A stretch of DNA of 64,000 nt from an uncultured bacterium (lineage in GTDB: Bacteria; Patescibacteriota; Minisyncoccia; UBA6257; GWB1-50-10). Location of the stretch: assembly GCA_963768835.1 (NCBI GenBank), contig CAVYJB010000001.1, positions 216,420 to 280,419 of the forward strand. The letters run 5' to 3'. Within the stretch, counting starts at the first letter, position 1, and every line of letters starts with the position of its first letter. Made by a program: the position numbers and the translations under genes. Under the pieces are notes generated by a model. It did no database searches and was not told the origin of the DNA. It worked only from the letters and a program-made list of their open reading frames with translations. Shown in pieces: positions 1,855 to 63,166 of this stretch.

Positions 1855-1930
1855 GCGTCTCTGGTTGATAGTGAATAAACGGTGAACGTACTGAATTCTT
1901 TGTAACATATACAATACAATTATGTCAAGC

Positions 1931-1971
1931 TGTGCGAAAGAAAAGGCCCCGACTTAAAAAGAGTCGGGGCC
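1931..1971 (-). terminator. rho-independent terminator downstream of the minus-strand tRNA
   Basis: 10-bp GC stem ggccccgact/agtcggggcc with 7-nt loop, followed on the minus strand by ttttctttcgc. Confidence 0.6.
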
Positions 1972-2041
1972 GAAGATTGTGCGGCGGACGCGCACCGCAT
2001 CCGTGTATCCCCCGATCTTGGGACGGAGCACGCCGCCGCCG

Positions 2042-2137
2042 TGCGAGAGGCAGGGTTCGAACCTGCGACCTTCGATTTCGAGATTGCCGCGTAACCGGTT
2101 CTCTCTAACGCTGCTCTACCAACTGAGCTACTCCCGC
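2042..2137 (-). tRNA. tRNA-like gene with ~20-nt insertion between D-arm and T-arm (isotype undetermined)
   Basis: reverse complement gives GCGGGAG acceptor, canonical D-arm GCTCAGTTGGTAGAGC, T-arm GCAGGTTCGAACCCTGC and 7-bp acceptor closure with G4:U wobble; 45 nt instead of ~22 between D- and T-arms; no encoded CCA. Confidence 0.5.
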
Positions 2138-2395
2138 TGCACAACAAACAGGTGTAAATAAAGAAGGAGGGCGAGGCTGAACTCAGCCCCGAACCGCGCC
2201 GGCCAGGTACGGTCGCGCCGCAGGGGCCGCAGTGTTCCTTCCCGTCAGCCAACACCGCCTACCCCGATTGTCTTGCGTCGCCTCCTTCCTCGTATATGCT
2301 GCGGGGCAGTGTACCGAAACCCGTCTTAGGTGTCAACCTAGTGTATTCAACAAACCACTCACGTCGCCATGTTGCGAGCACCTCTGCGCTCGGCG

Positions 2396-5194: not shown

Positions 5195-6475
5195 ATGGTT
5201 TCTAAGAGATTTAAACTCTTCAAAATCCCGGAAGGTGGGGATACTGTTGTTTTTGTCCCTGCGCTCGCGAGAGTGTACAGAATTCCAGAGAAAATCGCTG
5301 CGGCGTTACCGAATTTTGTCACCGCAGAGATGGCTATTGCCGAGGATGCGGAATGGAAATCTCATGATCGAAATTTCACATCTGTCGTTCTGGCGCTGAC
5401 AAATAAATGCAATCTGCAGTGTGTTTACTGCTATGGCGATTTCGGACGCCCGAGAAACGGGACCGGGATAGTGATGGAATCAAGAATCGCAAGGGCTGCA
5501 ATCGACTACATCGTCGAGCAGGCTAGAGGAACAGACAGGAAGAGAGTTCATCTGGGCCTGTTTGGCGGCGAGCCCACACGCGCCTGGGAACTTCTCATCG
5601 AATCGGTGGGTTATCTCCGCTCTACAACACATCGCAACGGACTCCAGAGTACGGCCGGGATTATCACGAATGGCTTTATGAATTCCAAGATGGCCGGCTG
5701 GTTGGCGACCAATTTGGACGGCGTCACCATTTCTTTTGACGGCTATAAATCTATCCAAGATTCACAGAGAAGCGGCAGTTTCGAGAGAGTATTTGCTACC
5801 GCCAAAAAGATTTATGGCTTAAGTCCAAAGAAATTAACTTTCAGGGCCACGGTCACCGAATCAAGCGTGGGTTCATTGAGGGAAATAGTCGAGTTCTTCG
5901 GGATCAACTTCCCTGGATGTGTCCAAAGGTACGAGCCATTATTTCCGATGGGTAGAGGCGTAGGTTCCGGCACCGACGGGAAATCACTGCATTCAGTATT
6001 CTTCGATAAATTTCTGGAAGCAGTACCAACGGCGCGGAAATACGGTTCAAAGCTAAAGACGTCCGTATTGCGATTAAGGGGCGGAGAACACGATGTTTTT
6101 TGTGGTGCATCCGGCAGGAATTTTCTTGTGACTTACGATGGCAGCGTAGTGTCTTGCAATCGAATGATGGAAGCTAATATCAACGAGGCCTCCGATTTCT
6201 TCCACTATGGCCGCTTTGATAAGAAGTCGTGTAGCTTCATCTTCGATGAAGAAAAATACGCGAGACTCAAAATCCTGTCTCTGAAGACAGTTCCTGACTG
6301 CGAGAATTGCTTTGCACAATTCAGCTGCAAGGGAGATTGCCCAGCCAATAAGGCCGTAACCCTCCCCTCTTCTTTCTGGAAGGAAAAAAGTTATCGGTGT
6401 AGCGAAATACGTGATTTCCTACAGAAAGTCCTTTCTTATGTTCTAGATAATGGAACTGATGGGCTGTTCATCTGA
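5195..6475 (+). CDS. radical SAM/SPASM domain peptide-modifying enzyme
   Basis: CNLQCVYC (CxxxCxxC) cluster, GGEPT SAM motif, C-terminal SPASM-type CENCFAQFSCKGDCP; ~60-aa N-terminal extension (possible RRE). Confidence 0.9.
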   Translation: MVSKRFKLFKIPEGGDTVVFVPALARVYRIPEKIAAALPNFVTAEMAIAEDAEWKSHDRNFTSVVLALTNKCNLQCVYCYGDFGRPRNGTGIVMESRIARAAIDYIVEQARGTDRKRVHLGLFGGEPTRAWELLIESVGYLRSTTHRNGLQSTAGIITNGFMNSKMAGWLATNLDGVTISFDGYKSIQDSQRSGSFERVFATAKKIYGLSPKKLTFRATVTESSVGSLREIVEFFGINFPGCVQRYEPLFPMGRGVGSGTDGKSLHSVFFDKFLEAVPTARKYGSKLKTSVLRLRGGEHDVFCGASGRNFLVTYDGSVVSCNRMMEANINEASDFFHYGRFDKKSCSFIFDEEKYARLKILSLKTVPDCENCFAQFSCKGDCPANKAVTLPSSFWKEKSYRCSEIRDFLQKVLSYVLDNGTDGLFI

Positions 6476-6582
6476 ACAGCTCATTTTTTTATGCCATCAA
6501 GAGGACCGCGGGCGTAAGCCCGTGAAGTTTCATTTGTCAATTGATTTTTCTTATGGTTTAATAGGTACAGGTAGATACAAGG

Positions 6583-7836
6583 ATGCTGAGTTTTAAGAGG
6601 TTAGAAAATCGAGGTACGCCCATCTACTGGATGGGTATGAATTCCGCCGAATCGCTCGCCATCGGTATATTTGTCAACGCCGGGACACGCGATGAGCGGT
6701 GGCCTGAGGAGGCCGGGCTGGCTCATGCACTCGAGCACATGAATCTGCGAGGGACCAAGAAATTCCCTACAAGCGAATCCTTGAACAGCTATATTGAGGG
6801 AGTCGGGGGAAACAAGGGTGCGTGGACGGACAAGGAAGGGACTTTCTACTACGGCCGAGCTCCCTACCAATACCGAGAGAGACTGTTCGAGGTCCTTTTT
6901 GAGGCAGTTCAAAATCCCCTGCTTCTCGAGGAGCGTATCTCCGTAGAAAGGGGAAGTATCCTGAAGGAAATAAGAAGGAAGATCGATAATCCGCCTGAAA
7001 CGCTTTATGACCTTACGCTAGATTTCATATTCAAGGAACACCCGCTTTCGCGAAAGACACTGGGAACTGAGGAAGCGGTGGAAGGATTCCAGAGGAAGGA
7101 TTTCGTGAAATTCAGAGAGAAATTCTACAACTCGGCGAACTATGTTATTTTCTTCATCGGCAACGCAGGAGAGAACGAGGTAATAGAATTGGTGGAAAAA
7201 TACTTCAAGAATGAAAAGTTCTCCGGAAAGAACATACGAAAGGAAGTGGCCTGGAAACCGGGGAGTGAGCAGGCGCTCTATAAGCACCGGGATGTAAGCC
7301 AAGCCTATTTCTCTTTGGCAGCACCCTTCCGCGAGACACCGCGCGATTATAGCTCATTAAGGGCGCTGGATATGTTCTCAGTTATGATATCGGGCGGCAC
7401 CGCTTCTCCGCTGTTCCAAGAAATGAGAGAGAAGCGGGGGTTGTGCTATACAGTCCAATCCGGTGTCCGGCATTTCTCGGATCTGGGCTTCTTCTACATT
7501 CAAGCCGGTACAGATCCAAAGCAATACAGGGAAGCTATCGACACGGCACGCAATGTTATGGAGAGAAGCAAGAAGGATGATGCGTTGCTCCAGAGAACCA
7601 AGAAATACCGGCTCGGCCAGTTGCGGTTGGGCTACGAGAATACCGGTGATATCCTGGGCACCGCGGCGCACCAAATGCTTTCGTACGGAGAACCGAGGGA
7701 TTTCTTCAAGATAGAGAAAGAGATCAATGATTTTAAAATCAGCGACATCGAGAAAGTTGTAGATTCATACCTAAAACCCGATCTGATAAAGGAAGTTGCT
7801 ATATTCCCGAAGCAAAGCGAAGCCCCTTCGAACTGA
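6583..7836 (+). CDS. M16 family (pitrilysin/insulinase-like) zinc peptidase
   Basis: inverted zinc motif HALEHM (HxxEH) near the N-terminus, 417 aa. Confidence 0.85.
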   Translation: MLSFKRLENRGTPIYWMGMNSAESLAIGIFVNAGTRDERWPEEAGLAHALEHMNLRGTKKFPTSESLNSYIEGVGGNKGAWTDKEGTFYYGRAPYQYRERLFEVLFEAVQNPLLLEERISVERGSILKEIRRKIDNPPETLYDLTLDFIFKEHPLSRKTLGTEEAVEGFQRKDFVKFREKFYNSANYVIFFIGNAGENEVIELVEKYFKNEKFSGKNIRKEVAWKPGSEQALYKHRDVSQAYFSLAAPFRETPRDYSSLRALDMFSVMISGGTASPLFQEMREKRGLCYTVQSGVRHFSDLGFFYIQAGTDPKQYREAIDTARNVMERSKKDDALLQRTKKYRLGQLRLGYENTGDILGTAAHQMLSYGEPRDFFKIEKEINDFKISDIEKVVDSYLKPDLIKEVAIFPKQSEAPSN

Positions 7837-7857
7837 CCCGGGACAATCAAAAGAATA

Positions 7858-8526
7858 ATGGTTTATAAGTTGAGCCTGACAAAATCCAGCGACAGGTTTG
7901 TCGAAGGGGTCTTTTGTAAGTCCATGAAGGATCTCGGTAAATTTTATGCCATCCACTGGACAACAAATACACCCAAAATTGTCTTACTGAAAGACAGAAA
8001 AACAATTGACTTGTTGCGTGCGAGAAAAACTGAACCGTGGCTCGTCGGTTGGGCCAACGGAGAAATGCGGATTGTTTTCGTATTGGACAGAAGGAGTCTG
8101 GGGAAATACAGTTCCCACAAATACTCTAAGGAGCATTATTCCTCTTTGATCAAACACGAACTCAGCCACCTATTCTATAAAATACTCACCGGCGACAAAC
8201 GGGGCCCCGTATGGCTGTCCGAAGGCGTGGCAATTTATACCTCTGGCCAACATAAATCGAGAACAGTGCCTAGCGAATTCAAGAATTTCTTGACGTTTTA
8301 CAGTCATGGCGGTTCTGGAGTATACGCAGAATCGGGCTTCGTTGTTGAAATACTTGTTAGAAACTTTGGCAAGAATAAATTACTTAAACTTATAAAATCT
8401 TTGCGAAGCATATCCGATGAAAAGCAATTCAATAGGGTCTTTAAAAGAATTTATGGATTTCAGATTAGTTATAGAAGCATAAATAACTATTATACAAACA
8501 GCTCTCCTCCACGATTAAGAACATGA
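7858..8526 (+). CDS. HExxH zincin-like protein, paralog 1 (peptidase MA-like)
   Basis: HELSH followed by WLSEGVAIY (gluzincin third-ligand-like). Confidence 0.65.
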   Translation: MVYKLSLTKSSDRFVEGVFCKSMKDLGKFYAIHWTTNTPKIVLLKDRKTIDLLRARKTEPWLVGWANGEMRIVFVLDRRSLGKYSSHKYSKEHYSSLIKHELSHLFYKILTGDKRGPVWLSEGVAIYTSGQHKSRTVPSEFKNFLTFYSHGGSGVYAESGFVVEILVRNFGKNKLLKLIKSLRSISDEKQFNRVFKRIYGFQISYRSINNYYTNSSPPRLRT

Positions 8527-9215
8527 GGAAGCTCCGCTTCTATTTCAACAGAAATCTAGACAAGTTCATGGCTGCCCAGTTTCTCGACGAAAAAATGGGC
8601 GGCATTGATTTTGGGGTAAATATTGTTAAGCTCCATCCCCTACTAAGGTCCTCCAAAAAGGATCGGGGGGCGAGAAAGAAAACATTGGATAAATATTTCA
8701 AACAATACTACCGTAGCCATCGCCGTGAAATGTCTCAGAAGGCATCGAGGATAAAAGAGGCGTGGCGTGACGTCGAGGACGAGTTTGTGATCACGACGGA
8801 ACGTTTGTTAGGTGGATTCCGTTTCCCATCCGGCCGGTACATCGCATACCCCTCGATTGTGGACTGTAACCCCCGCTTTCTGGTATCAAAAACGTTCCAG
8901 TTCTACTATCGGAAGGTCCCCACGGATGCCGTGCACACCATTGCCCACGAGCTTCTGCACTTCATCTTCTTTGCATTCGTCAAATCGAGGTTGAAGAATG
9001 CCATCAAGAAACTTCCTGAGGAGAAGCTCTGGGACCTCTCGGAACTTTTCAACGTCATAATTCTTCAATCGCCGTCTTACCGGAAACTCATCAATCCGCA
9101 CTATGCCCATCCCTATCCAGACCACCAAAAGTACGTCTCTCGATTTGAGACCGCCTATCGAAAGTCCCGCGCCATAGAGGAATTCATCCGGAACGGGATC
9201 GCAATTATAAAATGA
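8523..9215 (+). CDS. HExxH zincin-like protein, paralog 2
   Basis: HELLH motif; ATGA start/stop overlap with upstream gene. Confidence 0.6.
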   Translation: MRKLRFYFNRNLDKFMAAQFLDEKMGGIDFGVNIVKLHPLLRSSKKDRGARKKTLDKYFKQYYRSHRREMSQKASRIKEAWRDVEDEFVITTERLLGGFRFPSGRYIAYPSIVDCNPRFLVSKTFQFYYRKVPTDAVHTIAHELLHFIFFAFVKSRLKNAIKKLPEEKLWDLSELFNVIILQSPSYRKLINPHYAHPYPDHQKYVSRFETAYRKSRAIEEFIRNGIAIIK

Positions 9216-10036
9216 AGCACAAGAAGAGCATCGGCAGCATGAAAACACCCAGACTCGAATATAGAAATTCCTATGAAGTGTTCGTTCTTTTCGCTGCCCT
9301 GAACGCGCTGGGGTACGACGATGAGAGCCGGATCAGCGGGATGTCCCTTCTCCGAAGGAGAACAAGAGGGTCCCTGCGCAGGCATGTTCGGAGCCAAAAA
9401 TACCCTCAGCTGAAGAGATTCTTTCATGCACACAGCCCGTGGCATCTTCTGATCTTCACGCTCCGCGGCAGTTCAATCCCGGCCCTCCGGAGTTTCTCTA
9501 AAGAACCAGCAGTGCGGGCGCTATGGAGGGAAGCGCGAACGCGCCAAGAGGCGGAGTTGGGAAAAATCTCCACGCTTTTCGCGCGTGAAACGGTGCGCCT
9601 TATTCGACTCGTCGGAAAACCGGTTCGCCCCATCGACCGAATTGTGCTTATCCCAAATCTCCTTGATGCGTACTGGCGCGGATACTGTCTCCGCGTGAGG
9701 CGGGTCTGCTACATCGTAGTAGGGCCAGGGGCCGAGAAGAACGGCGGCGAGCTTATCCGGCACGAACTCCTGCATCTCCTGGCCCCGAATATCCACCTCC
9801 CGCTCCCCGCTCACTCGCCCAAAATCCGTGCCCGCCTTTCGCGCCAGGGTTACTCTAACCAATCTATTATTAATCGTGAGTATGTCGTCCGCGGCCTAAA
9901 CCTTCTCTATGAGTCAGAGTTTTTGAGTAAGAATATCCGCGCATCAGTCGTACGAGAACGAAGAAATTTCCCCTATATTAGGAAGGTTATAAAATCTCTG
10001 AAAACAAAGATGGGGCTGGCATTTTCGAAATCATGA
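9212..10036 (+). CDS. HExxH zincin-like protein, paralog 3
   Basis: HELLH motif; translationally coupled. Confidence 0.6.
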   Translation: MKHKKSIGSMKTPRLEYRNSYEVFVLFAALNALGYDDESRISGMSLLRRRTRGSLRRHVRSQKYPQLKRFFHAHSPWHLLIFTLRGSSIPALRSFSKEPAVRALWREARTRQEAELGKISTLFARETVRLIRLVGKPVRPIDRIVLIPNLLDAYWRGYCLRVRRVCYIVVGPGAEKNGGELIRHELLHLLAPNIHLPLPAHSPKIRARLSRQGYSNQSIINREYVVRGLNLLYESEFLSKNIRASVVRERRNFPYIRKVIKSLKTKMGLAFSKS

Positions 10037-11040
10037 AACTCTTCATCCAAATCTCAAAATTACATAACTACTTCTTCTTTGTTTCGAACCTTGCCGAGTG
10101 GAGCCCCTATTGTCGAAAGCAATACAACGAAGTCTGGCTTCGCGGTAATCCTCTCACTGCACCAGAGCGGACAGCGCTTAAAAAGGTGGCTGGTGTCTTT
10201 AAGAAGCATGGGTTCTCGGATCGATTCGCCTCATCCGAATCTCCTGATGTGATATGGGACACCATCGCGAAAACTCTGAAACCGGATGAGTATGCGGCAC
10301 TTCGGAACGCTTTTGCTACGCTCACTCCGCGATTTGAGAAGGTATGGCGGCGCGAGAAGGGAAATCTAATGCGGGTGCAAAAGGAAATGAAGAAATCGCT
10401 CTCGCTCTCCAAAAGAGCTCTTGGTGTGTTAGAAACTCTTTACGGCGCTCCGTCAAAAAGTTTGACCCTCGAGATATTCCTCCTCACAAATCCCATCTCC
10501 AAGCGCCTAGTGGGAGGCGGAAGCGGCATCGGGGAAAACAAAATCGAGCTTGAGTGCTCAAGGGTGACGAAACACAACAACCCAAAAGGGTGGCTGGGCA
10601 GGGTTATACTCCATGAATTCGTCCATGTGGCGCTTGAGAAAGAACTCCGAGACAAGATCGGGGCCTTTGTAGGCAGCAAGGATTTCCGAAAGCGCCACGA
10701 ACCGTTTTTGAAGCACTCCGCTATCTATTGTGAGACTCGATCGTTCGTCGGACCTATCAAGGAGATGGTTGCTGTATCCCTTCTCCCCGAAGGATATCTA
10801 GCCGAGAAGATTTATGGCGCGCGCGTCGTCGAGAGCCTGAAACAGCGGAACGCGGTCCGGACCCACACCTTCCGGAAGGACTACTACGACCTGATGCTTT
10901 TCTCTCTGTGGGGGCTCTATGATATCGCCAAGGAGTACTCCGACCAGCGGAAGCCGATTGACAGGAGGTACATCGAAACCGTGGTGCGGAATTGGGAATC
11001 CTTCGAGAGCATGGATCTTTCGAGGTTTGACCCCGAATAA
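10033..11040 (+). CDS. HExxH zincin-like protein, paralog 4
   Basis: HEFVH motif; translationally coupled. Confidence 0.6.
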   Translation: MKLFIQISKLHNYFFFVSNLAEWSPYCRKQYNEVWLRGNPLTAPERTALKKVAGVFKKHGFSDRFASSESPDVIWDTIAKTLKPDEYAALRNAFATLTPRFEKVWRREKGNLMRVQKEMKKSLSLSKRALGVLETLYGAPSKSLTLEIFLLTNPISKRLVGGGSGIGENKIELECSRVTKHNNPKGWLGRVILHEFVHVALEKELRDKIGAFVGSKDFRKRHEPFLKHSAIYCETRSFVGPIKEMVAVSLLPEGYLAEKIYGARVVESLKQRNAVRTHTFRKDYYDLMLFSLWGLYDIAKEYSDQRKPIDRRYIETVVRNWESFESMDLSRFDPE

Positions 11041-16241: not shown

Positions 16242-17897
16242 ATGAAGAAATTAATTGTTTTAGTGCTCGGCATCGTTATGCTTGGCACAATCGGTGGGCG
16301 TGCGGGTCAGAAAACCGCTACGACGCTCGCAAACGGCGCTACGGTCTTGAATGTGGATGGGCGAATCCTTTCGTCCAACCCCGTGCTTGACCCGAACTAC
16401 AGAAATATTCTCGACCCTGCGTCAAACCTAGCGAAGTCCTCTGGGTTCACGGAAATTCCACAGAACATAACCCAGGTATGGACGGATTCGTTCACACTCG
16501 GAGGGACACAGGATGTTCCGCTTTTTGTGAAAGTGGACGGGCTCGGGAACTCGTATGTCAACGGGTGGCGATCGGTTTATCCTGCCCCTTATGACTACGC
16601 GCGTGCGGTACTCCGGAAGTTCTCGCCTTCAGGTGTCCCTCTCTGGTCCATACAGACCATGCAGGACACTACCGCCTCCGGCTGGAACCAGATAACCACG
16701 CTCTCCGACAATTCTGTTGTGTGGGCATGGTCCGGGTTCATCAACATCGACAGTACGCACATCGAGAAGCTTTCCCCGACCGACGGTTCGCTCATCTGGC
16801 AGACCGCTATCCGTGGAGACGTCCTCTTGGGTTCATACGGGAATACAGTCATCGCGGTGCAATGCAGCTACACGAGCGGCAGAATCTTCCTGCTCGACTC
16901 TACGGGAACGATCTTCCGAAGTTTCCCGACGAGCAATGATTCGGCAGGCTCCGCAGTGACGGGGAATGTCACAACTCGCGTCTGGAACGGAAGGCTCTAC
17001 TTGTTTGCTGGGCGTCCAGGCGGGGTCGCGATTTCTCTTTCCTCGTATGCGGCCTGCTATGACCTCGCGTCAGGCTCGTTTCTCTGGAGACAGGATTTCG
17101 TGGACCTCGAGCGGCTCTTCGGCGACGTCGACATCGATGGTAACGTCTATGCCGGAGGCAGCTTATGGACCGACGATTTCCCGCAGTTCGGCAATATGCG
17201 CTTCGTCATGAAGAAGTTCTCTCCGGACGGAGCACCGCTCTGGGCAACAGGATGGTTTCCGAAGTCCAATCCGGACGGCAACTGGGAAAACTGGGGGAAC
17301 GGAATCGCCGTTTCCCACCAGAGCTCTCCGGGGCAACGGGTCGTCGTTCTGCTCGGAATCACCGAACGGGATACAGTGGACACGGGAGCTCGCCTGAACT
17401 ACGTTCTAGGACGAAAGGCTTCAACCGGCGATTCACTCTTCGTCATGACCTGGGAGTATGGCACGGATGCGATCGTGAACGGGGTGAACGGTGGTCAGTT
17501 CGATTCAGACAATGACCTTATCGTTCTCGGACAAGAGTACCGAGGCTCTGGGCCTGTTTGGGGATACGGACATCTGCATAAGTTCGAAGGAATTGTTGCT
17601 TCTGTAGAGGTGTTGCCGGGTCTCGTGCCAACCAGTTTCATCCTCCATCAGAACTACCCCAACCCCTTCAACCCTTCGACCGTCATCCGGTTCGAGGTGA
17701 AGAAGGAAGTTCCTGTCTCACTGTTCATTTACAGTGTCACGGGAGCGAGGGTGGCGACTCTTCTGGAGAACGAGCGGAAGGCTTCGGGAGTCTATGAAGT
17801 CTCCTGGAACGCTTCGCAGTTCGCTTCGGGGATCTACTTCTATCGCCTTATCGCTGGATCGTTTGTTGAGACGAAGAAGATGGTGTTCCTGAAGTGA
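16242..17897 (+). CDS. secreted protein with T9SS-type C-terminal sorting domain
   Basis: signal peptide; C-terminal ~80 aa (NYPNPFNPSTVIRFEV...GIYFYRLIAGSFVETKKMVFLK) match the Por/T9SS CTD pattern; GGGTG RBS. Confidence 0.85.
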   Translation: MKKLIVLVLGIVMLGTIGGRAGQKTATTLANGATVLNVDGRILSSNPVLDPNYRNILDPASNLAKSSGFTEIPQNITQVWTDSFTLGGTQDVPLFVKVDGLGNSYVNGWRSVYPAPYDYARAVLRKFSPSGVPLWSIQTMQDTTASGWNQITTLSDNSVVWAWSGFINIDSTHIEKLSPTDGSLIWQTAIRGDVLLGSYGNTVIAVQCSYTSGRIFLLDSTGTIFRSFPTSNDSAGSAVTGNVTTRVWNGRLYLFAGRPGGVAISLSSYAACYDLASGSFLWRQDFVDLERLFGDVDIDGNVYAGGSLWTDDFPQFGNMRFVMKKFSPDGAPLWATGWFPKSNPDGNWENWGNGIAVSHQSSPGQRVVVLLGITERDTVDTGARLNYVLGRKASTGDSLFVMTWEYGTDAIVNGVNGGQFDSDNDLIVLGQEYRGSGPVWGYGHLHKFEGIVASVEVLPGLVPTSFILHQNYPNPFNPSTVIRFEVKKEVPVSLFIYSVTGARVATLLENERKASGVYEVSWNASQFASGIYFYRLIAGSFVETKKMVFLK

Positions 17898-17976: not shown

Positions 17977-19638
17977 CTACTGCGCCAGATATTTGTCCAG
18001 GTTCAAGCCTTGGACATTTGTATGAGCAGTGTTCGGCCAGTTGGCGGCATCGAAGCGGGGCGCCGTCAGGCGGTAGGAGACCTGTCCGGCAGCGCTCCCA
18101 CGAATGGTGAGTGTCTCGCGGGAGACGTCCTTCTCGTACCACACGTCCCCGTCGAAGGACGGGAGAAGGAGCACCGCCACTTGCCTGAAGTTCGAAGCAA
18201 GATTCGCCGCGTTGGCGAAAAGCCAGAGATCGGATCCTTTCGGCGCGCCAGCAAGGTCAAGGGTTGCCGCATAGCCATTCCCCTGTTTTGTGAGCGTCGC
18301 CGTCCCCGCCGTCTCCTCCTTCTGCCCCGTCATACCGGTTCCGTAGGTCGCGTACTGTTTGCCACCAATGGTGTAAACCGGGTCCCAGGTAGCGACTGTG
18401 ATCTTCCCCCCGGCCAAGGAAAGCCATCCGCCGGCCGCGCTCGTAAGGGTCATGTTGCCGCTCGTGCCCGCCTGGAACCAGAGAGTCCCACCGTTGATAC
18501 CGATGGCATACTTGTTCGAACCATCATCCCAAAGAATGAGCCGGTCGCCACTTGCAATAGCTCCCGCCCCGCCGGGCCCAGAGTAGCCGCCATTGGAGAT
18601 AAGGACGGCGCCGTTTACATATAACGCCTCACCCACCACCGAAGAGTTCCCGACATCCATCTTGTAGCCGGTGGAATTGGGGTAAAGACCGCTTCCGGAG
18701 AGGGTCCAGTAAGGCGATGCAGCGCCCGCGGAACCCGTGGGGCCAGCGGGGCCGTTCGCGCCCGCGAAACCTCCGGTAGGACCTCGCGGACCGGTAGAGC
18801 CCTGCGCACCCGCGAAACCTCCGGTCGGACCTTGCGGACCGGTAGGGCCGTTTGCGCCCGCGAAACCTCCGGTCGGACCTACGGGCCCGGTCGAGCCGTT
18901 TGCTCCGTTCGTGCCGGTCGGACCTCGCGCACCCGTCGGACCCGCGGGACCCGTCCCGCCCGCAGAACCGTTCGTCCCGGCGGCTCCCTGTGGACCCTGC
19001 GGACCTGTTGCTCCGTTAGAACCGTTTGAGCCAGTAGGCCCCCTGGCGCCCGTAACTCCTCCGGGACCGGTTGCGCCGATCGCGCCGTTCGTGCCGGTCG
19101 GACCTTGGGCACCCGTAGGACCGCCAGGGCCTGTACCGCCAGTAGAACCGTTCGCGCCATTCGTGCCAGTCGGACCCCGCGGACCGGTCGGACCAGTTGG
19201 GCTTGCGCCATTCGCTCCCGCAGGACCTCCGGGGCCTGTGGGGCTCGTACCGTTCGCGCCCGCGGGCCCCGTGGAACCTGTGGGGCCCTGCACGCCAGTC
19301 GGACCCGCGGTCCCCGAAGGGCCGGTAACACCGGCGATTCCCTGGGGACCCGTTGGAGAAATTCCATTCGTGCCTGCAGGCCCCATGGGACCCGAAGGGC
19401 CAGTCGCACCTTGCGCTCCATGCCAGTTCACCCACGATGAACTGTTGCAAATTAAGTGTGACCCCGTCGTGGAGGAGAAGTAAACCGTACCGGCGTTAGC
19501 TGAGTTGCAGGTGACGGGCGGCGTCGAGGTCGGCACAAAATTGAGCGTTGTAAGTTGCTGCCCGCTCGCAACCAAAGCGACGCCCATTCCGGCAATGAGG
19601 ATGACGCCAGCGAGGTTGTGGAGAGTGCGTCGATCCAT
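17977..19638 (-). CDS. collagen-like triple-helix repeat protein (GPT/GXY repeats) with conserved C-terminal globular domain
   Basis: signal peptide, about 80 Gly-X-Y triplets rich in GPTG/GATG, C-terminal ~240 aa shared with 19651..21369 and 31237..32307. Confidence 0.8.
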
Positions 19639-19650
19639 AGCAGTACAGGC

Positions 19651-21369
19651 TTATCGGGAAAGGAACGTGTCGAGGTTCAGCCCTTCTGTTGCTTCGTTGG
19701 AGGTATTCGGCCAGTTGGCACTGTCAAAGCGAGGTGCGGTCAGACGATAGCTCACCTCGTACGGTCCGGCATCGGAAGCGCTGCTGTTCTCTCGGCCGAG
19801 AATCGTGAGTGTCTTCGCAGCTATGTCCTTCTCATACCACACGCGACCGGGGAACGAGGGGGTCACGAGTGCCGTGAGCCCGTCGAAAGCGTTCACAAGG
19901 TTGGTCGCCTTTCCGAAAAGCCAAACGTCCGAACCCTGGGGGAGATTATTAAAATCAAAAACGTACGCGAGGAGACCTGGCGTACCCGTCGGCTGGAGAT
20001 CGACAAGCCCCGCCGTCTCCTCCTTTTGTCCTGTCATACCGGTTCCGTAGGTCGCGTACTGTTTGCCACCAATGGTGTAAACCGGGTCCCAGGTACCCAC
20101 GGTAATTTTCCCCGCCCCTCCATAAGGACCGTTGCCCACGGTGAGTGTGCCCCCAGAGCCGTTTGAAAGACTCATATATCCGCTCGTGCCCGCTTGGAAC
20201 CAGAGGTTTCCACCGACGATCCCGATGCTGTACTTGTTCGAACCATCATCCCAGAGGATAAGCCGGTCGCCCGTGCTGATACTGCCCGCGGCTCCTGGGC
20301 TGTTCACCGTGCCGGGGTTTATGAGCGCAGCGCCCGTGACATTCAGTTTATAATTCCCCGGCGAGGAGTTCCCGATACCGACATTGTAGGTAGTGGAATT
20401 CGGGTAGAGACTGCTTCCGGAGAGGGTCCAGTAGGAACTCCCTGCGCTGCCCCCAGGACCCGTGGGGCCGGTCGAACCGGTTGGGCCCGCAGGACCCTGA
20501 ATACCTGTAGGACCAGCGATACCGGTTGGGCCCGCAGGACCCTGAATACCTGTAGGACCAGCGATACCGGTCGGACCCGCAGGACCCTGGATACCCGTAG
20601 GACCTACGCCACCGTTCGTGCCTGCAGCACCTTGAAGACCCGTGGGGCCGTTGGGACCGGTAGGGCCTACACCACCGTTAGAGCCGTTCGAGCCTGTATT
20701 GCCAGTGGGACCGGTAGGACCCGCACCACCGTTGGAACCTCCGGCGCCTGTAAGACCCGTGGGACCGGTGGGACCGGTGGGACCCCCACCGCCATTGGAG
20801 CCGGCAGAACCCGTGAGCCCCGTCGGGCCTGTGGCACCCGTGGGACCTGCACCACCGTTAGAGCCGTTCGAGCCTGCTGCACCTTGAAGACCTGTCGGGC
20901 CTCCCGGACCTGTTGAACCATTGGTTCCTGCGCTTCCCGTCGGACCTGTCGGGCCTGTTGAACCGTTCGAACCTGCACCTCCCGTGGGACCTGCCGAGCC
21001 AGTAGGTCCGGTCGGACCCTGCCCTTGACCCGTAGGGCCGGTCGCACCCTGAAGACCTGTGGGACCGTTCGAGCCGTTCGCGCCCGCCGAGCCTGAGGGA
21101 CCCGTAGGGCCGGTCGCGCCTGTGGCGCCAGCGTAGGTACTCCACCCTACACCATTACAGATGTACTCATTATTATCTGTGCCGAAATAGACAGCTCCTT
21201 TATTGGATCCGCCGCTGCAGCTGAGAGGCGCCGAAGCCTGAGGCACGAATTTAATGCTTTGAAGCAACTGGGCCTGCGCAAGGTAGGCAACACCGCTTGC
21301 GACAACTGCAAGCGCGAGTCCGATAACGACATGCTCGATCCTAAAATGTTTCCGCATGCGGGGGAACAA
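19651..21369 (-). CDS. collagen-like triple-helix repeat protein, paralog
   Basis: same architecture as 17977..19638; conserved [28 protein letters not shown] block. Confidence 0.8.
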
Positions 21370-25987: not shown

Positions 25988-27028
25988 ATGATGAGACCAA
26001 TGACGACACCTCGTCACATCCTCGTGACCGGCGGCGGCGGATTCCTGGGGTCAGTGCTTGTCCCTCTTCTCCTCGACCACGGGTACCACGTGACTGTCCT
26101 TGACCGTTTCTTCTTCGGGCGTGGCACGCTTGCCGCGTGCTCCTCGAACCCCCGCTGCAAGCTTGTCGAAGCCGACACGCGCACCGCGCCGGAGACCCTC
26201 TTCCAGGGCATCGATTCCGTCGTCGACCTTGCGGCGCTCTCGAACGACCCCTTGAGCGAGCTCAAACCCGAAACGACCCTCGACATCAACTTCCACGCCC
26301 GGGTGCGCACCGCGACGCTCGCGAAAAGGCACGGAGTGGGACGGTACGTGCTTGCCTCGACCTGCAGCGTCTACGGGTTCCAAAACGGCGTTCTCACAGA
26401 GACCGCCGTTTTGAATCCGCTCACGACCTACGCGCGCGCGGCCGCGCGCGCCGAGGAACGCACCCTCGCGCTCTCCGACGGAACCTTTGCGGTGACCGCC
26501 CTGCGGCAGGGAACGCTCTATGGCCTTTCGCCGCGAATGCGCTTCGACATCGTGGTGAATACCCTCACGCTGTCGCTCTTCCGCGACGGGAAACTCCACC
26601 TCAACGGGGGCGACCAGTGGCGTCCCCTCCTCCATGTGGGAGACTCCGCCCGCGCGTTCCTTGCCGTGCTGGAGGCGCCCCCCGCGGCCGTCGGAGGCCA
26701 GGTCTTCAACGTCGGTGCAACAGCCCAGAACTTCCAGCTGAACCACCTCGCCACGCTCATCGTACGCACCCTCGATATCCCGCCAAGGATAGAGACGACG
26801 GAGGCGTACGACCATCGTTCGTACCGAACCTCCTCCGCGAAAATAGAGCGGACCCTCGGCTTCATGACGCAGAAAACGCCGGAGCACGGCGCGCGGGAGG
26901 TGTACGGGGCGCTCCGCACGGGAAGCGTCACTGCAGAAAAAAGCACCATCACGCTTGAGTGGTACAAGCATCTCCTCTCAGGCGACCCGGGGATTCTCGA
27001 TCCCCGCGATATCTCCCACACCGCATAA
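25988..27028 (+). CDS. NAD-dependent epimerase/dehydratase (SDR family)
   Basis: ILVTGGGGFLGSVLV Rossmann motif. Confidence 0.85.
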   Translation: MMRPMTTPRHILVTGGGGFLGSVLVPLLLDHGYHVTVLDRFFFGRGTLAACSSNPRCKLVEADTRTAPETLFQGIDSVVDLAALSNDPLSELKPETTLDINFHARVRTATLAKRHGVGRYVLASTCSVYGFQNGVLTETAVLNPLTTYARAAARAEERTLALSDGTFAVTALRQGTLYGLSPRMRFDIVVNTLTLSLFRDGKLHLNGGDQWRPLLHVGDSARAFLAVLEAPPAAVGGQVFNVGATAQNFQLNHLATLIVRTLDIPPRIETTEAYDHRSYRTSSAKIERTLGFMTQKTPEHGAREVYGALRTGSVTAEKSTITLEWYKHLLSGDPGILDPRDISHTA

Positions 27029-27034
27029 CGGCCT

Positions 27035-43518: not shown

Positions 43519-45013
43519 AAGTTCATCTCTCTCAAAAATATTTTGGACGCTTCGCGTCTTCTCCTGCGTTTCGGCCAGAGAGGAAAAGGGTTTTTTGAAA
43601 TCCACTACGAGCGTTCCCGAGGCAAGGCGGCGGTTCGAGCCGATGGCGGCAAGAAAATCTTTCATCGGTATCGGATTTTCTTGGTTAGTCAGATTTAGGG
43701 CTTGGTTGGCTTCGATTATCCAGTTTCTGAAAAGTCCGAGCCAACGATTTCCCTTTCGCTCAAAATCGCCCAGTTGCTCGTCGAGCGTCTTCTTTTCGGA
43801 CAGGAGCCGGTTCTTCGTCTCCTGATATTCTTGAAGCTCGAACGAGCCGGAAAGATAGCCGTCGTTGAGGCGGTCAATCTTCATTTTAACGGCGGCTATC
43901 TTCGTCCTTAGATTTTGCGCGAAAGCGTCCGACGAGCGGCGGGCTTCGCCCGTTTCCCCGTCCAGTTTCAATAAATATTTATCTCGCCACTCGTCGGGCA
44001 AAGAAGCTTTTTGGACTAGCTCCTTAACTTGTCCGGCAAGAACCTCCTCCCGCACAAAGCGGGTTTGCGAACAGACCTGCGTCTTGCTCTTGAAGGTGCA
44101 GTGATAGTAATGGTAAGTCCTGCCGTTCTTCTTCACCTTCCGCTCGCCCGTGATGGCATAGCCGCACTCGCCGCAGAGTCGCAAACCCGAGAAACGGGAA
44201 ATTCTTGTCGCCGCGCTTTTTGCGGGGCTTGCCGTTCAAGACCAGTGCCTCCTGTATCTCATCAAAAAGCTTCTTGGAAATCATCGGCGTATGCGAACCC
44301 TCGTGCACCTCGCCACGATAGCGGAAATGGCCGTAGTAGAACGGGTTGGTCAAAATCTTCTGAATGGAGGATAAGGCGAGGGGTTTGCCGTCCCTGCTCG
44401 TGAGCCCCACGGAAAACATCTTGTCCCGTATGGCCGTCTTCGTGTACCGCCCCGTGGCAAAAGCTTCAAGACATTCCTTCACTTTATTAAAAGTATTTTT
44501 ATCCGGCTCGATCGTACGCAAGCGCGGCTCGTTGAAATATCCCATCGGAGCTTTTGCCGACAGCTCGCCCCGCCGTATCTTCTGCCGTATGCCCCGCAAG
44601 ATGTTTTCCCGCAAATTGTCGGTGTAATACTTGGCCTGCCCGAACGCGACCGATAACATAAATTTTCCTTGCGGGGTCGGCTCAAACCAGAAGGTAGGAA
44701 ATTTGAGCGAAACAATATTGCCCGTGTCCACGAGATAGATGACCCTGCCGCCGTCCACGCTATTCCGTGCCAGTCGGTCGGGGTTCCACGCCAAGATGCC
44801 GGAAGCGACGCCCTGCTCAATCTGCGCCACCATCTCGCCGAACACAGGGCGGCCGGGTTCCTTCGCACTCTGGCTCTCGGTGTATTCGCGGACGATGAAA
44901 AGATTATTTTGCTCCGCGAACGCGCGAAGTTCGGCGAGCTGGGCTTCAATTGAAAGCACTTGACGCTCCTCGTCCTCCGACGACTTCCGGCAATAGATAA
45001 AATATTTATTCAT
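43507..45013 (-). pseudogene. large serine recombinase, frameshifted (N-terminal resolvase/recombinase domains 44024..45013; C-terminal zinc-ribbon/coiled-coil 43507..44184)
   Basis: N-ORF has [10 protein letters not shown] catalytic Ser region; C-ORF starts with zinc ribbon [12 protein letters not shown]; frames differ by 1 nt near 44175-44195 within ccc/aaa/ggg runs; C-terminus reads DELWWT through the tRNA-Ala 3' end. Confidence 0.8.
43513..43636. repeat. inverted repeat A, left copy (~125 bp, starts on tRNA-Ala CCACCA)
   Basis: reverse complement matches 45092..45216 with 1 mismatch seen. Confidence 0.85.
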
Positions 45014-48510: not shown

Positions 48511-49977
48511 CTATTTCACGTGATGCCTTTCCTTCATTTCCTCTTCCGCCCCCGCCTCGAACTCGTCTTTCTTCTCGCGGGCCTTGGAAGATAGCTTCTG
48601 GAGTTCCGCATCGGAGAGCATTCCAAGCTCCCGGGCTCGGGTTTCAAGATAAACCTTCTCGTTTCGTCTCGGATCGTCCAGCACGTCCTCGAGAAGGATA
48701 GAAAGAACGGCGCCTATTTTCGGTCCCGCCGGAATATTGAGCATCCGCATCACATCATCGCCCTTGACCGCAAGCATCTTCGGATGGATGGGGTCTCGGC
48801 GCACCTTATCGATCATGAACAGCAGGTGACGGAGTTTGTATGGGAAGGCCTTCGGGACGCCGGAGCCGATGCGATCAGCCTCGCGAACCTTCAAAAGATC
48901 GTCCACGTGCTCGGGGCCCACGCGCACCAGGAACCGCCGCACGCCGGCTTCGGTTACCTCCCCCACGTTGTAGTAGAAGAGATGGCAACGTACGAGATGA
49001 GTTACCTCTTCCACAATCTCTTTCGAGAAGCGCAACCGATCCAGTATTTTTGCAGTCATCCGTGCGCCCACCATCTCGTGGTTATAGAAAGTGGAGTCGG
49101 GTCCATCCCCGCCCTTCGTGCGGGGCTTCCCTACGTCATGCAGTAGCGATGCGAGCCGCACCACGAACGAGTAGTTCTTCTCGGCCGCGTAGTTCAAGGC
49201 CCGCACATTGTGATCGAAAACCGTGTAGATGTGGTGTTTGTTCTGGCCGCACCCGATGCCCTCGCGCAACTCGGGGACGATGAACTGGAGGAGTCCTAAC
49301 TCCTCAAGCAGCACGATTCCTTCCGCCGCGCGCGCCGTGAGTAACATCTTCGTAAATTCGTCTCGCACGCGCTCCTTTGCGATCATCTCAAGATGCGGGG
49401 CTCCTGCCTGGATGGCTTCCCGGGTCTTGGGCTCAATAGCAAAACCCAGCTCCACCGCGAAACGCACCGCCCGAAGAAGCCGCAGCGCGTCCTCCCCAAA
49501 CCGTGCGGCAGGGTCCCCCACCGTGCGGATGGTTTTCCCCTTGAGGTCTTCCCGGCCCCCATAGGGGTCGATGATGCTATCCGCTCTATCCCCCGCAAGA
49601 CTGAGGGCGAGGGCGTTCACGGTGAAGTCGCGACGCGCGAGATCCTCTTCGATGGTTTTCGCGAACTTTACTTCGTCAGGATGTCGCTGGTCCGTGTAGC
49701 GCCCCTCAATACGATAGGTGGTCACCTCGACGACTTTGAGTTTTGAGTCCTCGGACTCGGTCTTCACGCCCACCGTGCCGAAGGTGTTCTCGTAAACGGA
49801 ATCGGGGAAGAGCTTCTGGATTCCCTCCGGCTTCGCGTTCGTTGCCACATCCCAGTCCTTCGGGTCGCGTTTCAGGAGCAGGTCCCGTACGCACCCCCCC
49901 ACCGCATATGCCTCGAAACCGGCGCCCGTGAGCGCCTTCGCGATGGCCCGTACTTCCTTCGGAACCTTGAATTCCAC
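48511..49977 (-). CDS. cca: CCA-adding tRNA nucleotidyltransferase with HD domain
   Basis: N-terminal Pol-beta-like NT motif GGCVRDLLL...DWD, central HD domain, 488 aa. Confidence 0.9.
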   Translation of the reverse strand: MEFKVPKEVRAIAKALTGAGFEAYAVGGCVRDLLLKRDPKDWDVATNAKPEGIQKLFPDSVYENTFGTVGVKTESEDSKLKVVEVTTYRIEGRYTDQRHPDEVKFAKTIEEDLARRDFTVNALALSLAGDRADSIIDPYGGREDLKGKTIRTVGDPAARFGEDALRLLRAVRFAVELGFAIEPKTREAIQAGAPHLEMIAKERVRDEFTKMLLTARAAEGIVLLEELGLLQFIVPELREGIGCGQNKHHIYTVFDHNVRALNYAAEKNYSFVVRLASLLHDVGKPRTKGGDGPDSTFYNHEMVGARMTAKILDRLRFSKEIVEEVTHLVRCHLFYYNVGEVTEAGVRRFLVRVGPEHVDDLLKVREADRIGSGVPKAFPYKLRHLLFMIDKVRRDPIHPKMLAVKGDDVMRMLNIPAGPKIGAVLSILLEDVLDDPRRNEKVYLETRARELGMLSDAELQKLSSKAREKKDEFEAGAEEEMKERHHVK

Positions 49978-50531: not shown

Positions 50532-52130
50532 TTATTCCCGCGAGCAGGATAGAATGCTTGAGAAGCGCCCGTAGCTCAACTGGATAGAGCATTTGCCTTC
50601 GAAGCAAAGGGTTCCAGGTTCGAGTCCTGGCGGGCGCACAAAGTGAGACGTTTCGCCGTCAAAGTCCCTGTTTAGCGAGAAGACAAGGGATAGTTCGGCG
50701 GTTCCAAATTTCCCGTCCGCAAAAGTTACTTTTTGCGGGAATACTAGGTTTTGGAACCTAACCTTGAGGGGGTACTTAAGCCGCCGCCACGTCTCGGATG
50801 AATTCCGGACGAACTGGAAGCAGTAATCGAGAGCCGCCTCCATGTTGAATTCCTCGATATGGTTTTCTCGCAAAAGGCGATGCTTCTCCGCAATTCGTTC
50901 GTTAATAATCGCTTTTTGTTCCGTAAATTCGTCGTCGGTGTATTTGCCCGCCCGGTGCAAATCAAACACCTTGAGCCGTTCCTGTTCTAGCTCTCCTATC
51001 TCCCGCCGGGTTCGTTCGCTAACCTCATTGAACTGCTTATAGTTCGTTTTCCATACGTCAAGGACCACAGCGCGAAATAGTTTTTCAAACCGCGCGGACG
51101 GGCTAATTTCCGTGAGATACTTGGCGAACTGGTCCTCAAACTCCTTTTGCGCGATGAACTTCGCCTCTGTGCATCCCTGAATATGGTGATGGTAATAGGC
51201 GTAGCGCTTGCCCTTGCGCCCCGTTGAGGTACTTCCTGTAAGCGCTCGCTTACACACGGGACAGTGAACGAAGCGCCGAAGGGGAAAGTCTGGGTTCGCT
51301 ACGTTGCGGACCAAAGGGCGCGCTCCGCCCTCGCGGACCAAGCGGCACTCCTCGAATACTTCTGGCGTCACTAAACTCTCGAACGTCCCATTGTTTCGTT
51401 CTCCAAATGCTTCAATGATGCCGCAATAGAGGGGGTTCTCTAGAACACGCTGAATAAACTGTTTCCTCGGTTTCTTGCCCGTCGTGGTCCGCAAACCGCG
51501 CTCAGCCATATACTCTGCTAACGATTCGTAACTGTGGGTTCCCTCGCGCCATTCGTCAAATATAAGCCGGTAAAGGTGCTTTGTTGCTTCAATGGGGGCG
51601 ATATTCGAGCCCTTTGCACCCCTTAGGGGCCGATAATAACCAGGTGGTTCTCTCCACTGCCAAATGCCCTTTCTAACATTTTCTAACATCCCGCTTTTAG
51701 AGCGCTCGGTACGCACGTTGTTATCGAACTCTGCAAAAACGGATAACATCCCCTCCATCGCCGCGCCTACTGGCGTGCTATCTATTGGTTCAGTTGTTGA
51801 GCAAAGCTCGGTGCCGTGTTTGTTGAGAATCGCACGGACCGTCGCGTGGTCATACTGCTTACGCGAGAAGCGGTCAATTTTGTAGACGATGAAATAATCT
51901 ACAGGGTGCCTTTTGTCCGAGCAAAACGCAATCGCTTTAAGGAATTCCGGTCTATTGGCGGTCTTCGCGGATTCTCCCCGATCCACAAACACCTTGAGTA
52001 ACTCGATACCGTTCCGGGCGGTGTACTCCCGAATGTTTTTCTCCTGCATTTCCAAGCTAGTGCCCTCCACTTGCTCTTTCGAGGAGACGCGGCAATACCC
52101 AATCCCAGTTTTCTTCTCTATGACGCTCAT
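50532..52130 (-). CDS. large serine recombinase (integrase); 3' end reads antisense through tRNA-Arg
   Basis: GYCRVSSKEQ catalytic Ser region, recombinase domain, zinc ribbon HCPVCKRALTG, coiled-coil; 532 aa. Confidence 0.85.
   Translation of the reverse strand: MSVIEKKTGIGYCRVSSKEQVEGTSLEMQEKNIREYTARNGIELLKVFVDRGESAKTANRPEFLKAIAFCSDKRHPVDYFIVYKIDRFSRKQYDHATVRAILNKHGTELCSTTEPIDSTPVGAAMEGMLSVFAEFDNNVRTERSKSGMLENVRKGIWQWREPPGYYRPLRGAKGSNIAPIEATKHLYRLIFDEWREGTHSYESLAEYMAERGLRTTTGKKPRKQFIQRVLENPLYCGIIEAFGERNNGTFESLVTPEVFEECRLVREGGARPLVRNVANPDFPLRRFVHCPVCKRALTGSTSTGRKGKRYAYYHHHIQGCTEAKFIAQKEFEDQFAKYLTEISPSARFEKLFRAVVLDVWKTNYKQFNEVSERTRREIGELEQERLKVFDLHRAGKYTDDEFTEQKAIINERIAEKHRLLRENHIEEFNMEAALDYCFQFVRNSSETWRRLKYPLKVRFQNLVFPQKVTFADGKFGTAELSLVFSLNRDFDGETSHFVRPPGLEPGTLCFEGKCSIQLSYGRFSSILSCSRE
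50565..50638 (+). tRNA. tRNA-Arg (anticodon TCG), no encoded CCA
   Basis: manual fold: acceptor GCGCCCG/CGGGCGC, D-arm GCTC-AACTGGATA-GAGC, anticodon arm TTTGC-CTTCGAA-GCAAA, T-arm CCAGG-TTCGAGT-CCTGG. Confidence 0.85.
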
Positions 52131-63093: not shown

Positions 63094-63166
63094 AGGTAGA
63101 CATCCCCCCATAGCTCAATTGGTAGAGCTGCTCCCTCTTAAGGAGAAGGTTCTAGGTTCGAGTCCT
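63094..63166 (+). tRNA. tRNA-Lys (anticodon CTT), C1:G72, no encoded CCA
   Basis: manual fold: acceptor CCCCCCA/TGGGGGG, U8 A9, D-arm GCTC-AATTGGTA-GAGC, anticodon loop CTCTTAA, T-arm CTAGG-TTCGAGT-CCTAG; one G:A mismatch at 27:43. Confidence 0.75.

Follow-up and report, generated by a model that had tools for sequence, protein, structure and literature searches.

A tRNA-derived gene with its anticodon arm replaced in a Parcubacteria-type CPR bacterium

The gene and its transcription unit

The window, by which is meant the whole 64-kb stretch of DNA that was analysed, carries a tRNA-derived gene at positions 2042-2137 on the minus strand. A search with the Rfam tRNA model (RF00005), a check that the sequence-only reading had proposed, returns a match with exactly these ends, at 49.6 bits where the gathering score is 29 (E=1.3e-7 over the whole window). 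The alignment treats the gene as class I and matches all positions of the model except those of the inner anticodon arm, where 34 nt stand for 11 positions. Read in order, the RNA consists of GCGGGAG, UA, GCUC, AGUUGGUA, GAGC, A, a segment of 40 nt, AGGUC, GCAGG, UUCGAAC, CCUGC, CUCUCGC and A. The 5' strand of the acceptor stem (GCGGGAG; 2131-2137, minus strand) pairs at all seven positions with 2043-2049, G4.U69 being one of the pairs; the 3' strand, CUCUCGC, together with the discriminator A73, occupies 2042-2049 (minus strand), and CCA is not encoded. The D arm (GCUC-AGUUGGUA-GAGC; 2113-2128, minus strand) has a 4-bp stem and an 8-nt loop, with A14, G15, G18, G19 and A21 present. The variable loop AGGUC (A44, G45, G46, U47, C48; 2067-2071, minus strand) is of class I and has its usual tertiary partners, and the T arm (GCAGG-UUCGAAC-CCUGC; 2050-2066, minus strand) has a 5-bp stem and a loop, UUCGAAC, that conforms to UUCRANY.

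The body of the molecule is therefore that of a canonical tRNA, as had been noticed from the reverse complement alone: all 16 stem pairs of the acceptor, D and T arms are formed (one of them G4.U69), uncompensated mismatches number zero, and the elbow and core bases are all kept (U8, A14, G15, G18, G19, A21, G46, C48, U54, U55, C56, A58). The acceptor stem, the D/T elbow and a variable loop of 4-5 nt, which are features of class-I tRNAs, are all present, whereas the class-I anticodon arm, with its 5-bp stem, 7-nt loop, U33 and purine at 37, is not. The distance from the D stem to the T stem is 46 nt (A26, the 40 nt and AGGUC) vs 23 in a class-I tRNA, so the earlier count of 45 nt instead of about 22 was right to within 1 nt. 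ARAGORN with default settings calls no tRNA at 2042-2137 (minus strand). The gene can securely be described as tRNA-derived, with a class-I body and a replaced anticodon arm, and it is best read as a tRNA-derived gene that does not decode. The tRNA lies within a 111-aa ORF (1920-2255, minus strand), which was considered as a coding sequence and rejected: the ORF is not a called gene on Logan contig L121, and it overlaps the 49.6-bit tRNA match.

The gene lies in a transcription unit with signals of its own. A sigma-70-type promoter (TTGACA-17 nt-TACACT; 2308-2336, minus strand) matches the consensus at 10 of 12 positions. It is followed by a GC-rich leader of ~163 nt (2138-2300, minus strand) with a strong predicted fold, at the site where relatives have a small ORF of 72-81 aa. 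The window leader contains no credible ORF, and tblastn with the small ORFs of the relatives gives no match there. Downstream of the tRNA lies a GC-rich trailer of 70 nt (1972-2041, minus strand) that is predicted to form a long hairpin and is not present in the relatives. The unit ends in an intrinsic terminator, GGCCCCGAC-UCUUUUUAA-GUCGGGGCC followed by a U tract (1935-1971, minus strand), whose stem sequence is kept in the relatives. The terminator hairpin (1971-1945) is strong, with a 10-bp stem, 8 G-C pairs and the U tract; the terminator that the sequence-only reading had reported downstream is thus there, though it begins 71 nt past the tRNA rather than immediately after it. The fold of the whole unit has a z score of -2.2. 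Searches of the leader and trailer with Rfam at permissive thresholds found no known RNA, only weak, terminator-like sRNA matches far below the gathering score. Because promoter and terminator are retained, the unit is probably still transcribed.

Host and genomic neighborhood

The host is, on the affinities of two of its proteins, a deep-branching CPR bacterium of the Parcubacteria type, because the best named relatives of the DUF192 protein and the CysRS of the window are all Parcubacteria-type CPR bacteria (Brenner-, Portnoy-, Jorgensen-, Harrison- and Sungbacteria). Identity to these relatives does not exceed 77% for CysRS and 51% for DUF192. The ORFs that directly flank the tRNA gene are orphans with no Pfam hits. 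Since the flanking 175-aa ORF yielded no homologue, synteny was traced through DUF192.

A CCA-adding enzyme is encoded at 48511-49977 (minus strand), with PolyA_pol head, RNA-binding, HD and tRNA_NucTran2_2 domains, which is consistent with the presence in the window of tRNA genes that encode no CCA. A canonical tRNA-Lys(CUU) is found elsewhere in the window by both ARAGORN and Rfam; the tRNA-Lys(CUU) at 63104-63178 has an unusual C1-G72 acceptor (CCCCCCA). ARAGORN also calls a tRNA-Leu(GAG) at 26943-27032 (minus strand), where Rfam finds no tRNA even at E<=0.1. This call is probably a false positive; it sits antisense in the 3' end of a gene for an NAD-dependent epimerase (25988-27028, Pfam 1.9e-36).

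Several other regions of the window deserve mention in their own right. The segment 43445-63178 has low GC (43-47% in parts), and two large serine recombinases within it directly adjoin tRNA genes, one (44024-45013) next to a tRNA-Ala and the other (50532-52130) overlapping a tRNA-Arg. The same segment holds a type III restriction-modification pair (53245-57673), an HTH protein and a reverse transcriptase (60147-61076), and its contents look like mobile elements integrated at tRNA genes. At 5195-11040 (plus strand), 3 kb from the tRNA-like gene, four consecutive ORFs, one or more of them peptidase-MA-like, share a co-directional cluster with genes for a radical SAM/SPASM enzyme and an M16 peptidase; the cluster resembles a RiPP maturation locus. 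The protein encoded at 16242-17897 has a T9SS-type C-terminal sorting domain, a domain that one would not expect in a CPR bacterium; the stretch 17977-21369 encodes two collagen-like repeat proteins.

The segment in place of the anticodon arm

In place of the 17-nt anticodon arm the gene has a 40-nt segment, GCGUUAGAGAGAACCGGUUACGCGGCAAUCUCGAAAUCGA (2072-2111, minus strand), which contains the palindrome AACCGGUU. The minimum-energy fold predicted for this segment is a weak, irregular hairpin with C-G and G-C pairs at its base, a GAGA/UCUC helix, a CCG/CGG helix and the hexaloop GUUACG. The hairpin contributes only a few kcal/mol, and its stability does not exceed that of shuffled sequence (z = 0.16). 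In an alternative register, the segment forms a continuous helix with tandem G.A pairs. Two of the pairs at the base of the 40-nt arm, G.A and U.U, are not Watson-Crick, and nothing is left of an anticodon loop.

Can a standard anticodon arm be recovered by removing part of the segment? All single contiguous excisions that return the gene to class-I length were tried, and none restores a 5-bp stem and 7-nt loop; at best, three of five pairs form. Moreover, no loop with U33, an anticodon and a purine at 37 exists at any position that can be reached from the 40-nt segment by one excision. The earlier statement that no standard anticodon arm could be folded is therefore borne out, in agreement with the silence of ARAGORN at default settings. 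On either side of the 4-bp GAGA/UCUC helix there are internal loops (3x3 and 3x5) rather than bulges. Cuts at these loops would leave an 8-nt loop on a stem with three of its five pairs formed (G.A/C-G/G-C/U.U/U-A). Searches with Rfam at permissive thresholds found no group I intron, tmRNA, Y RNA or other family at the locus.

The source of the segment was sought in and beyond the window. Copies of the insert, leader or trailer occur nowhere else in the 64 kb, and the window holds no att-like duplicate of the 3' end of the tRNA; a mobile-element origin of the insert was rejected on these two grounds. An origin by tandem slippage was also considered, as TCGAA can be seen by eye three times within 31 nt, yet TRF reports no array. 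Pattern scans of genome contigs (among the matches listed), metagenomes and viral sequences found no homologue with the same 40-nt arm. The genome-contig scan used the pattern D arm + N36-60 + GGTTCGAA, and the matches listed were mostly normal tRNAs with a chance GGTTCGAA downstream, or archaeal intron-bearing tRNAs. A stricter scan of metagenomes yielded no relative, only two long tRNAs (L140 and L141) that are unrelated, and the viral scan returned phage tRNA-like genes with long anticodon regions, again with no homologue among them.

The orthologous slot in relatives

Contigs of relatives were obtained through homologues of DUF192. Only three of them carry the tRNA slot: L142, which is a Brennerbacteria MAG, L150 and L151. 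The other contigs, L143-L149 and L152-L160, lack the slot or end there. The three share a unit that runs from a promoter through a small ORF, a tRNA, a terminator and DUF192 to GAPDH (gap). The small ORF encodes 72-81 aa, starts with MIEL and matches no Pfam family, and the tRNA begins 6-10 nt past its stop codon. A promoter of the form TTGACW-N17-TAYAST stands at the equivalent site in L151 and L142, with the same spacing as in the window. The terminator of the relatives follows 6-8 nt after the tRNA and has the conserved stem GCCCGAC...GUYGGGC. The order of promoter, terminator stem, DUF192 and GAPDH in the window is that of the relatives, with the small ORF missing, and because of this shared order the window gene is, judged by synteny, orthologous to the slot tRNAs of the relatives.

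The divergence among these genomes is considerable. Protein identity among the three relatives is 78-81% for DUF192 and 88% for GAPDH, and between the window and the relatives 70-73% for GAPDH. At third codon positions of GAPDH, L142 and L151 are 51% identical and the window is 44-45% identical to either, so that silent sites are near saturation throughout. The terminator stem GCCCGAC...GUYGGGC (window 1945-1971; L142 ~2476-2500; L151 ~2497-2521; L150 ~331-356) is conserved despite the saturated silent sites, which is unusual for a plain intrinsic terminator.

The tRNA itself has changed unevenly. In the 48 nt of body outside the D loop and anticodon arm, L142 and L151 agree at 44/48 positions, and the window agrees with these two at 38-40/48. 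The variable loop AGGUC is identical in the window, L142 and L151. Two stem pairs differ by compensatory changes: 7:66 is G-C in the window and A-U in the relatives, with G.U in L150, and 49:65 is G-C in the window and A-U in the relatives. The anticodon arms of L142 and L151 agree at 6/17 positions, and their anticodons differ (GGU vs CUU). This contrast between body and arm in the relatives (92% vs 35% identical) resembles a cassette-like turnover of the anticodon arm.

Each of the three slots also shows damage or remodelling of its own. The slot tRNA of L142 (2393-2467) is a Thr-GGU of 56.5 bits with three uncompensated A.C mismatches and the T loop UUAGAAU; its elbow is damaged, with C56 lost and an A53.C61 mismatch. 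That of L151 (2420-2490) is a Lys-CUU of 68.4 bits that lacks G18 and G19 and has U37. In L150 (~253-323), the outer 14 and 17 nt are kept, and the middle 40 nt are an unrelated sequence with a perfect 12-bp hairpin. A search of the L150 slot with the tRNA model gives no match at E<=1, and the D and T arms are absent. On its sequence, L150 offers a direct precedent for the one-step replacement of part of a tRNA by a hairpin at this slot.

Origin and possible function

The leading reading, to which we give somewhat less than an even chance, is that the window gene is a young relic of an accessory tRNA that is dispensable in this clade. The gene would have originated as an orthologue of the class-I tRNA that occupies a fixed slot in related Parcubacteria, a slot that would hold an accessory tRNA which changes identity and is repeatedly being lost. 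A single replacement or insertion event would have put a 40-nt irregular hairpin in the place of the 17-nt anticodon arm. With the acceptor, T and D parts intact, the tRNA elbow would still fold, and the signals and body suggest that the transcript would be cut by RNase P and receive its CCA from the CCA-adding enzyme encoded in the window. The arm, however, would be ~9-10 layers too long. Pairing with a codon in the ribosomal A site would not be possible for this RNA, because there would be no 7-nt anticodon loop at the right distance from the elbow. In the active tRNAs covered by a review, the anticodon stem is extended only from 5 to 6 bp (PMC7609411).

There is evidence on both sides of this reading. 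In its favor, the slot is decaying or remodelled in every relative examined (L142, L150 and L151), and the co-transcribed small ORF is already gone from the window, where neither an ORF nor a tblastn trace of it is left. The 40-nt hairpin is no more stable than shuffled sequence, and the window has a canonical tRNA-Lys(CUU) elsewhere. An element essential for decoding, the anticodon loop, has been lost, as in a pseudogene. Against it, promoter and terminator are intact, and the body has no uncompensated mismatch; uncompensated substitutions across the molecule, the other mark of a pseudogene, are seen in L142 and L150 but not in the window. Since the body is flawless, a pseudogene would have to be very young, and the compensatory changes at 7:66 and 49:65 indicate that the body was under selection through most of the divergence. 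Had a simple insertion been followed by neutral drift, the body would show damage too: two stem mismatches in 10 nt predict about ten in the body. The relic reading therefore fits only a single complex replacement event, if recent, and it is the possibility of such an event that reconciles it with the flawless body. The suggestion, made from the sequence alone, that the gene is a degenerating tRNA is thus plausible, and leads the field, with the amendment that decay is limited to the anticodon arm. Its companion suggestion of a short intron or insertion holds for the insertion, given the 34 nt at 11 model positions, and is not supported for the intron, as no excision restores an arm and there is neither a strict bulge-helix-bulge nor a group I intron.

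The flawless body and the scrambled arm can also be taken together as the sign of a functional, non-decoding tRNA-like RNA, in which the top half and elbow are selected and the anticodon arm is free to vary; this is possible, though we consider it somewhat doubtful. Such an RNA would be recognized by RNase P, the CCA-adding enzyme (which is encoded in the window) and possibly an aminoacyl-tRNA synthetase, EF-Tu or another tRNA-binding protein, and possible roles include an aminoacyl carrier outside translation, a signal for transcript processing, a decoy or a binding platform. Among the synthetases, GlyRS, ThrRS, AlaRS and LeuRS would be candidates, going by G1-C72, C2-G71, G3-C70, G4.U69 and A73. 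The comparison of L142 with L151 speaks for it: with the arm identical at 6/17 positions, GAPDH third positions at 51% and the body at 44/48, the arm evolves at least at the neutral rate and the body is constrained. So do the compensatory changes at 7:66 and 49:65 with their G.U intermediate in L150, the dedicated promoter and terminator conserved across lineages with saturated silent sites, and the perfection of the tRNA body beside an adjacent ORF that has decayed beyond recognition. The relatives, however, do not bear out a shared top half. The elbow is damaged in L151, which has no G18/G19, and in L142, with C56 lost and A53.C61 mismatched, and L150 has no D or T arm, so that no single structural feature is common to all four, which argues against a shared top-half function. 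The 40-nt arm, moreover, folds like a shuffled sequence, no homologue with the same arm was found in the genome-contig scan (among the matches listed) or the metagenome scan, and there is no evident partner protein, the flanking ORFs being orphans without Pfam hits. A bolder version, which is distinctly doubtful, would make all four loci members of a Parcubacteria tRNA-like family upstream of DUF192-gap, with the body under purifying selection and the anticodon arm a hypervariable, exchangeable cassette whose states would be the GGU arm, the CUU arm, the 12-bp hairpin and the 40-nt rod; the window copy would then be a working, non-decoding member. To our knowledge, no tRNA-like RNA family that uses only the top half of a tRNA, with the arm as an exchangeable cassette, has been described in bacteria.

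Readings in which the gene still decodes fare worse. It is unlikely that the gene is a decoding tRNA with an intervening sequence of ~23 nt, removed by an undescribed bacterial pathway, of the kind proposed for the tRNA introns of Lak megaphages, or cut and re-ligated by RNA repair enzymes. The 4-bp GAGA/UCUC helix with 3-nt unpaired stretches on both strands is a loose echo of a bulge-helix-bulge, but its flanking elements are internal loops rather than bulges, so that the strict motif is absent, and after cuts beside it the loop would have 8 nt and its stem would be poor. Some phage and bacterial contigs do carry tRNA genes that are good except for a short insert in the anticodon region (L093, L126, L137, L125 and L141), and "enigmatic introns" have been reported in tRNAs of Lak megaphages (PMC6784885); in the window gene, however, no contiguous excision yields more than three of five stem pairs. 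The ORFs scanned in the 64-kb window included neither a splicing endonuclease nor RtcB, and no splicing endonuclease would be expected, because the host is a bacterium of the CPR type. A group I intron is opposed by the lack of any Intron_gpI match even at permissive E-values and by the size of the insert, ~23 nt vs ~200 nt or more. Checking the locus with ARAGORN in intron mode, as had been proposed, does produce a tRNA, a class II tRNA-Leu(GAG) in which the variable arm has 21 nt and AACCGGUU is an 8-nt intron at 37/38. This solution (ARAGORN -i) has a stem of G-C, C-G, G-C and U-A with an A.G pair, and the discriminator A73 would fit Leu, but the A.G pair closes the stem, A33 stands in the place of U33, and the 21-nt variable arm is almost unpaired. 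The D arm is of the class-I type, with its 4-bp stem and 8-nt loop, AGGUC with its tertiary partners is the 5-nt class-I variable loop found in the class-I orthologues, the Rfam alignment is class I, and default ARAGORN makes no call. We regard Leu(GAG) as very improbable, and the idea of a class II tRNA with an unusual variable arm, offered in the sequence-only reading, is contradicted by the same D arm and variable loop. An assembly or sequencing artefact, such as a chimeric join inside the tRNA gene, might be suspected of an organism known only from metagenomic assemblies, the more so as the insert holds a palindrome. It is scarcely credible here: a 601-nt region around the gene is found without a difference in a Logan contig that was assembled independently (ERR11594402, 20.5 kb), besides the 353-kb record, and the window flanks are collinear with those of the relatives.

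Implications

What would these readings mean? If the gene is a relic, it provides a clean snapshot of the loss of an accessory tRNA in streamlined CPR genomes, by the replacement of an arm with a hairpin in one step rather than by point decay. If, instead, the pattern of conserved body and variable arm holds in more genomes, there would be a bacterial family of tRNA-like RNAs that uses only the top half, with a link to the long-armed tRNA genes in a Saccharibacteria genome and in phage contigs. These readings of the window gene draw on one sequence and three orthologues. The gene also serves as a warning for annotation, since Rfam says tRNA at 49.6 bits, and ARAGORN misses the gene or, in intron mode, invents a Leu-GAG with an intron.

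Comparison with known systems

The closest likeness is to class-I elongator tRNAs (RF00005), with which the window gene shares the acceptor, D arm, 5-nt variable loop, T arm, discriminator and elbow and tertiary bases, and from which it differs in having 40 nt where they have a 5-bp stem and a 7-nt loop. It resembles bacterial tRNA pseudogenes and relics in the loss of the anticodon loop, and the copies in the relatives show classic decay; however, its own body is without point-mutation decay and it has kept its own promoter and terminator. Long anticodon arms are known from tRNA-Pyl, tRNA-Sec and mt-tRNA-Ser(UCN), where the anticodon stem is one bp longer and the loop is a normal 7-nt loop (PMC7609411). 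The window gene is like these in having a long arm, but the arm is longer by 23 nt and has no anticodon loop.

Short extra sequence in the anticodon arm of an otherwise good tRNA is a trait shared with the BHB introns of archaea and eukaryotes and with the tRNA introns of Lak megaphages. The archaeal intron-bearing tRNAs examined (L003, L010 and L030 among them) have a recognizable anticodon loop and regain a 17-nt arm on excision, and the window gene does neither; it also differs from archaeal and eukaryal BHB-intron tRNAs in lacking a strict BHB motif and in having a bacterial host. Literature searches turned up no specific account of short tRNA introns, or of long-armed tRNAs, from CPR bacteria. 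A CPR tRNA gene of this general kind was nevertheless seen in a Ca. Saccharibacteria MAG (L093, JAECRG010000001, 7545-7645, minus strand; 50.7 bits), with 35 nt within a good 5-bp anticodon stem; its reading as Ala-CGC by ARAGORN requires a 30-nt "intron" at position 31. Long-anticodon-region tRNA genes were also seen in IMG/VR contigs (L126, L129, L131, L132, L133 (identical), L137, L125 at 2294-2400 and L127), in a Kaistella MAG (L008) and in a metagenome (L141). In these phage and bacterial genes the acceptor, D and T arms are perfect, and the anticodon region is enlarged by 14-32 nt. The L126 family has a 9-bp extended stem, some of the long-armed genes lie inside phage tRNA arrays, and the intron solutions of ARAGORN for them are mostly without U33 or R37. 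They may represent the same phenomenon as the tRNA "introns" of Lak megaphages, and long-armed tRNA genes may thus be a wider phenomenon than the window locus.

Hairpin-type intervening sequences of bacterial rRNA, which RNase III removes without re-ligation, offer another parallel, and CPR bacteria are known for insertions in their rRNA. The likeness is that, in a gene for a stable RNA, a conserved helix bears a hairpin-forming insertion at its tip. Removal of this kind from a tRNA, however, would give two halves without an anticodon, and the helix in the window gene, being short and irregular, would be a poor substrate for RNase III, unlike rRNA intervening sequences. The retention of the top half and elbow of a tRNA with a replaced anticodon arm is a trait of tmRNA and YrlA. 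tmRNA has no canonical D arm and has pseudoknots and a tag ORF, and neither a tmRNA nor a Y RNA was found at the window locus by ARAGORN or Rfam. YrlA has a circularly permuted topology whose open end lies at the position of the anticodon stem (PMC4201824), and it has an Rsr-binding stem. In the window gene, by contrast, the 5' and 3' ends form the acceptor stem, which gives it the normal tRNA topology, and the insert has just 40 nt.
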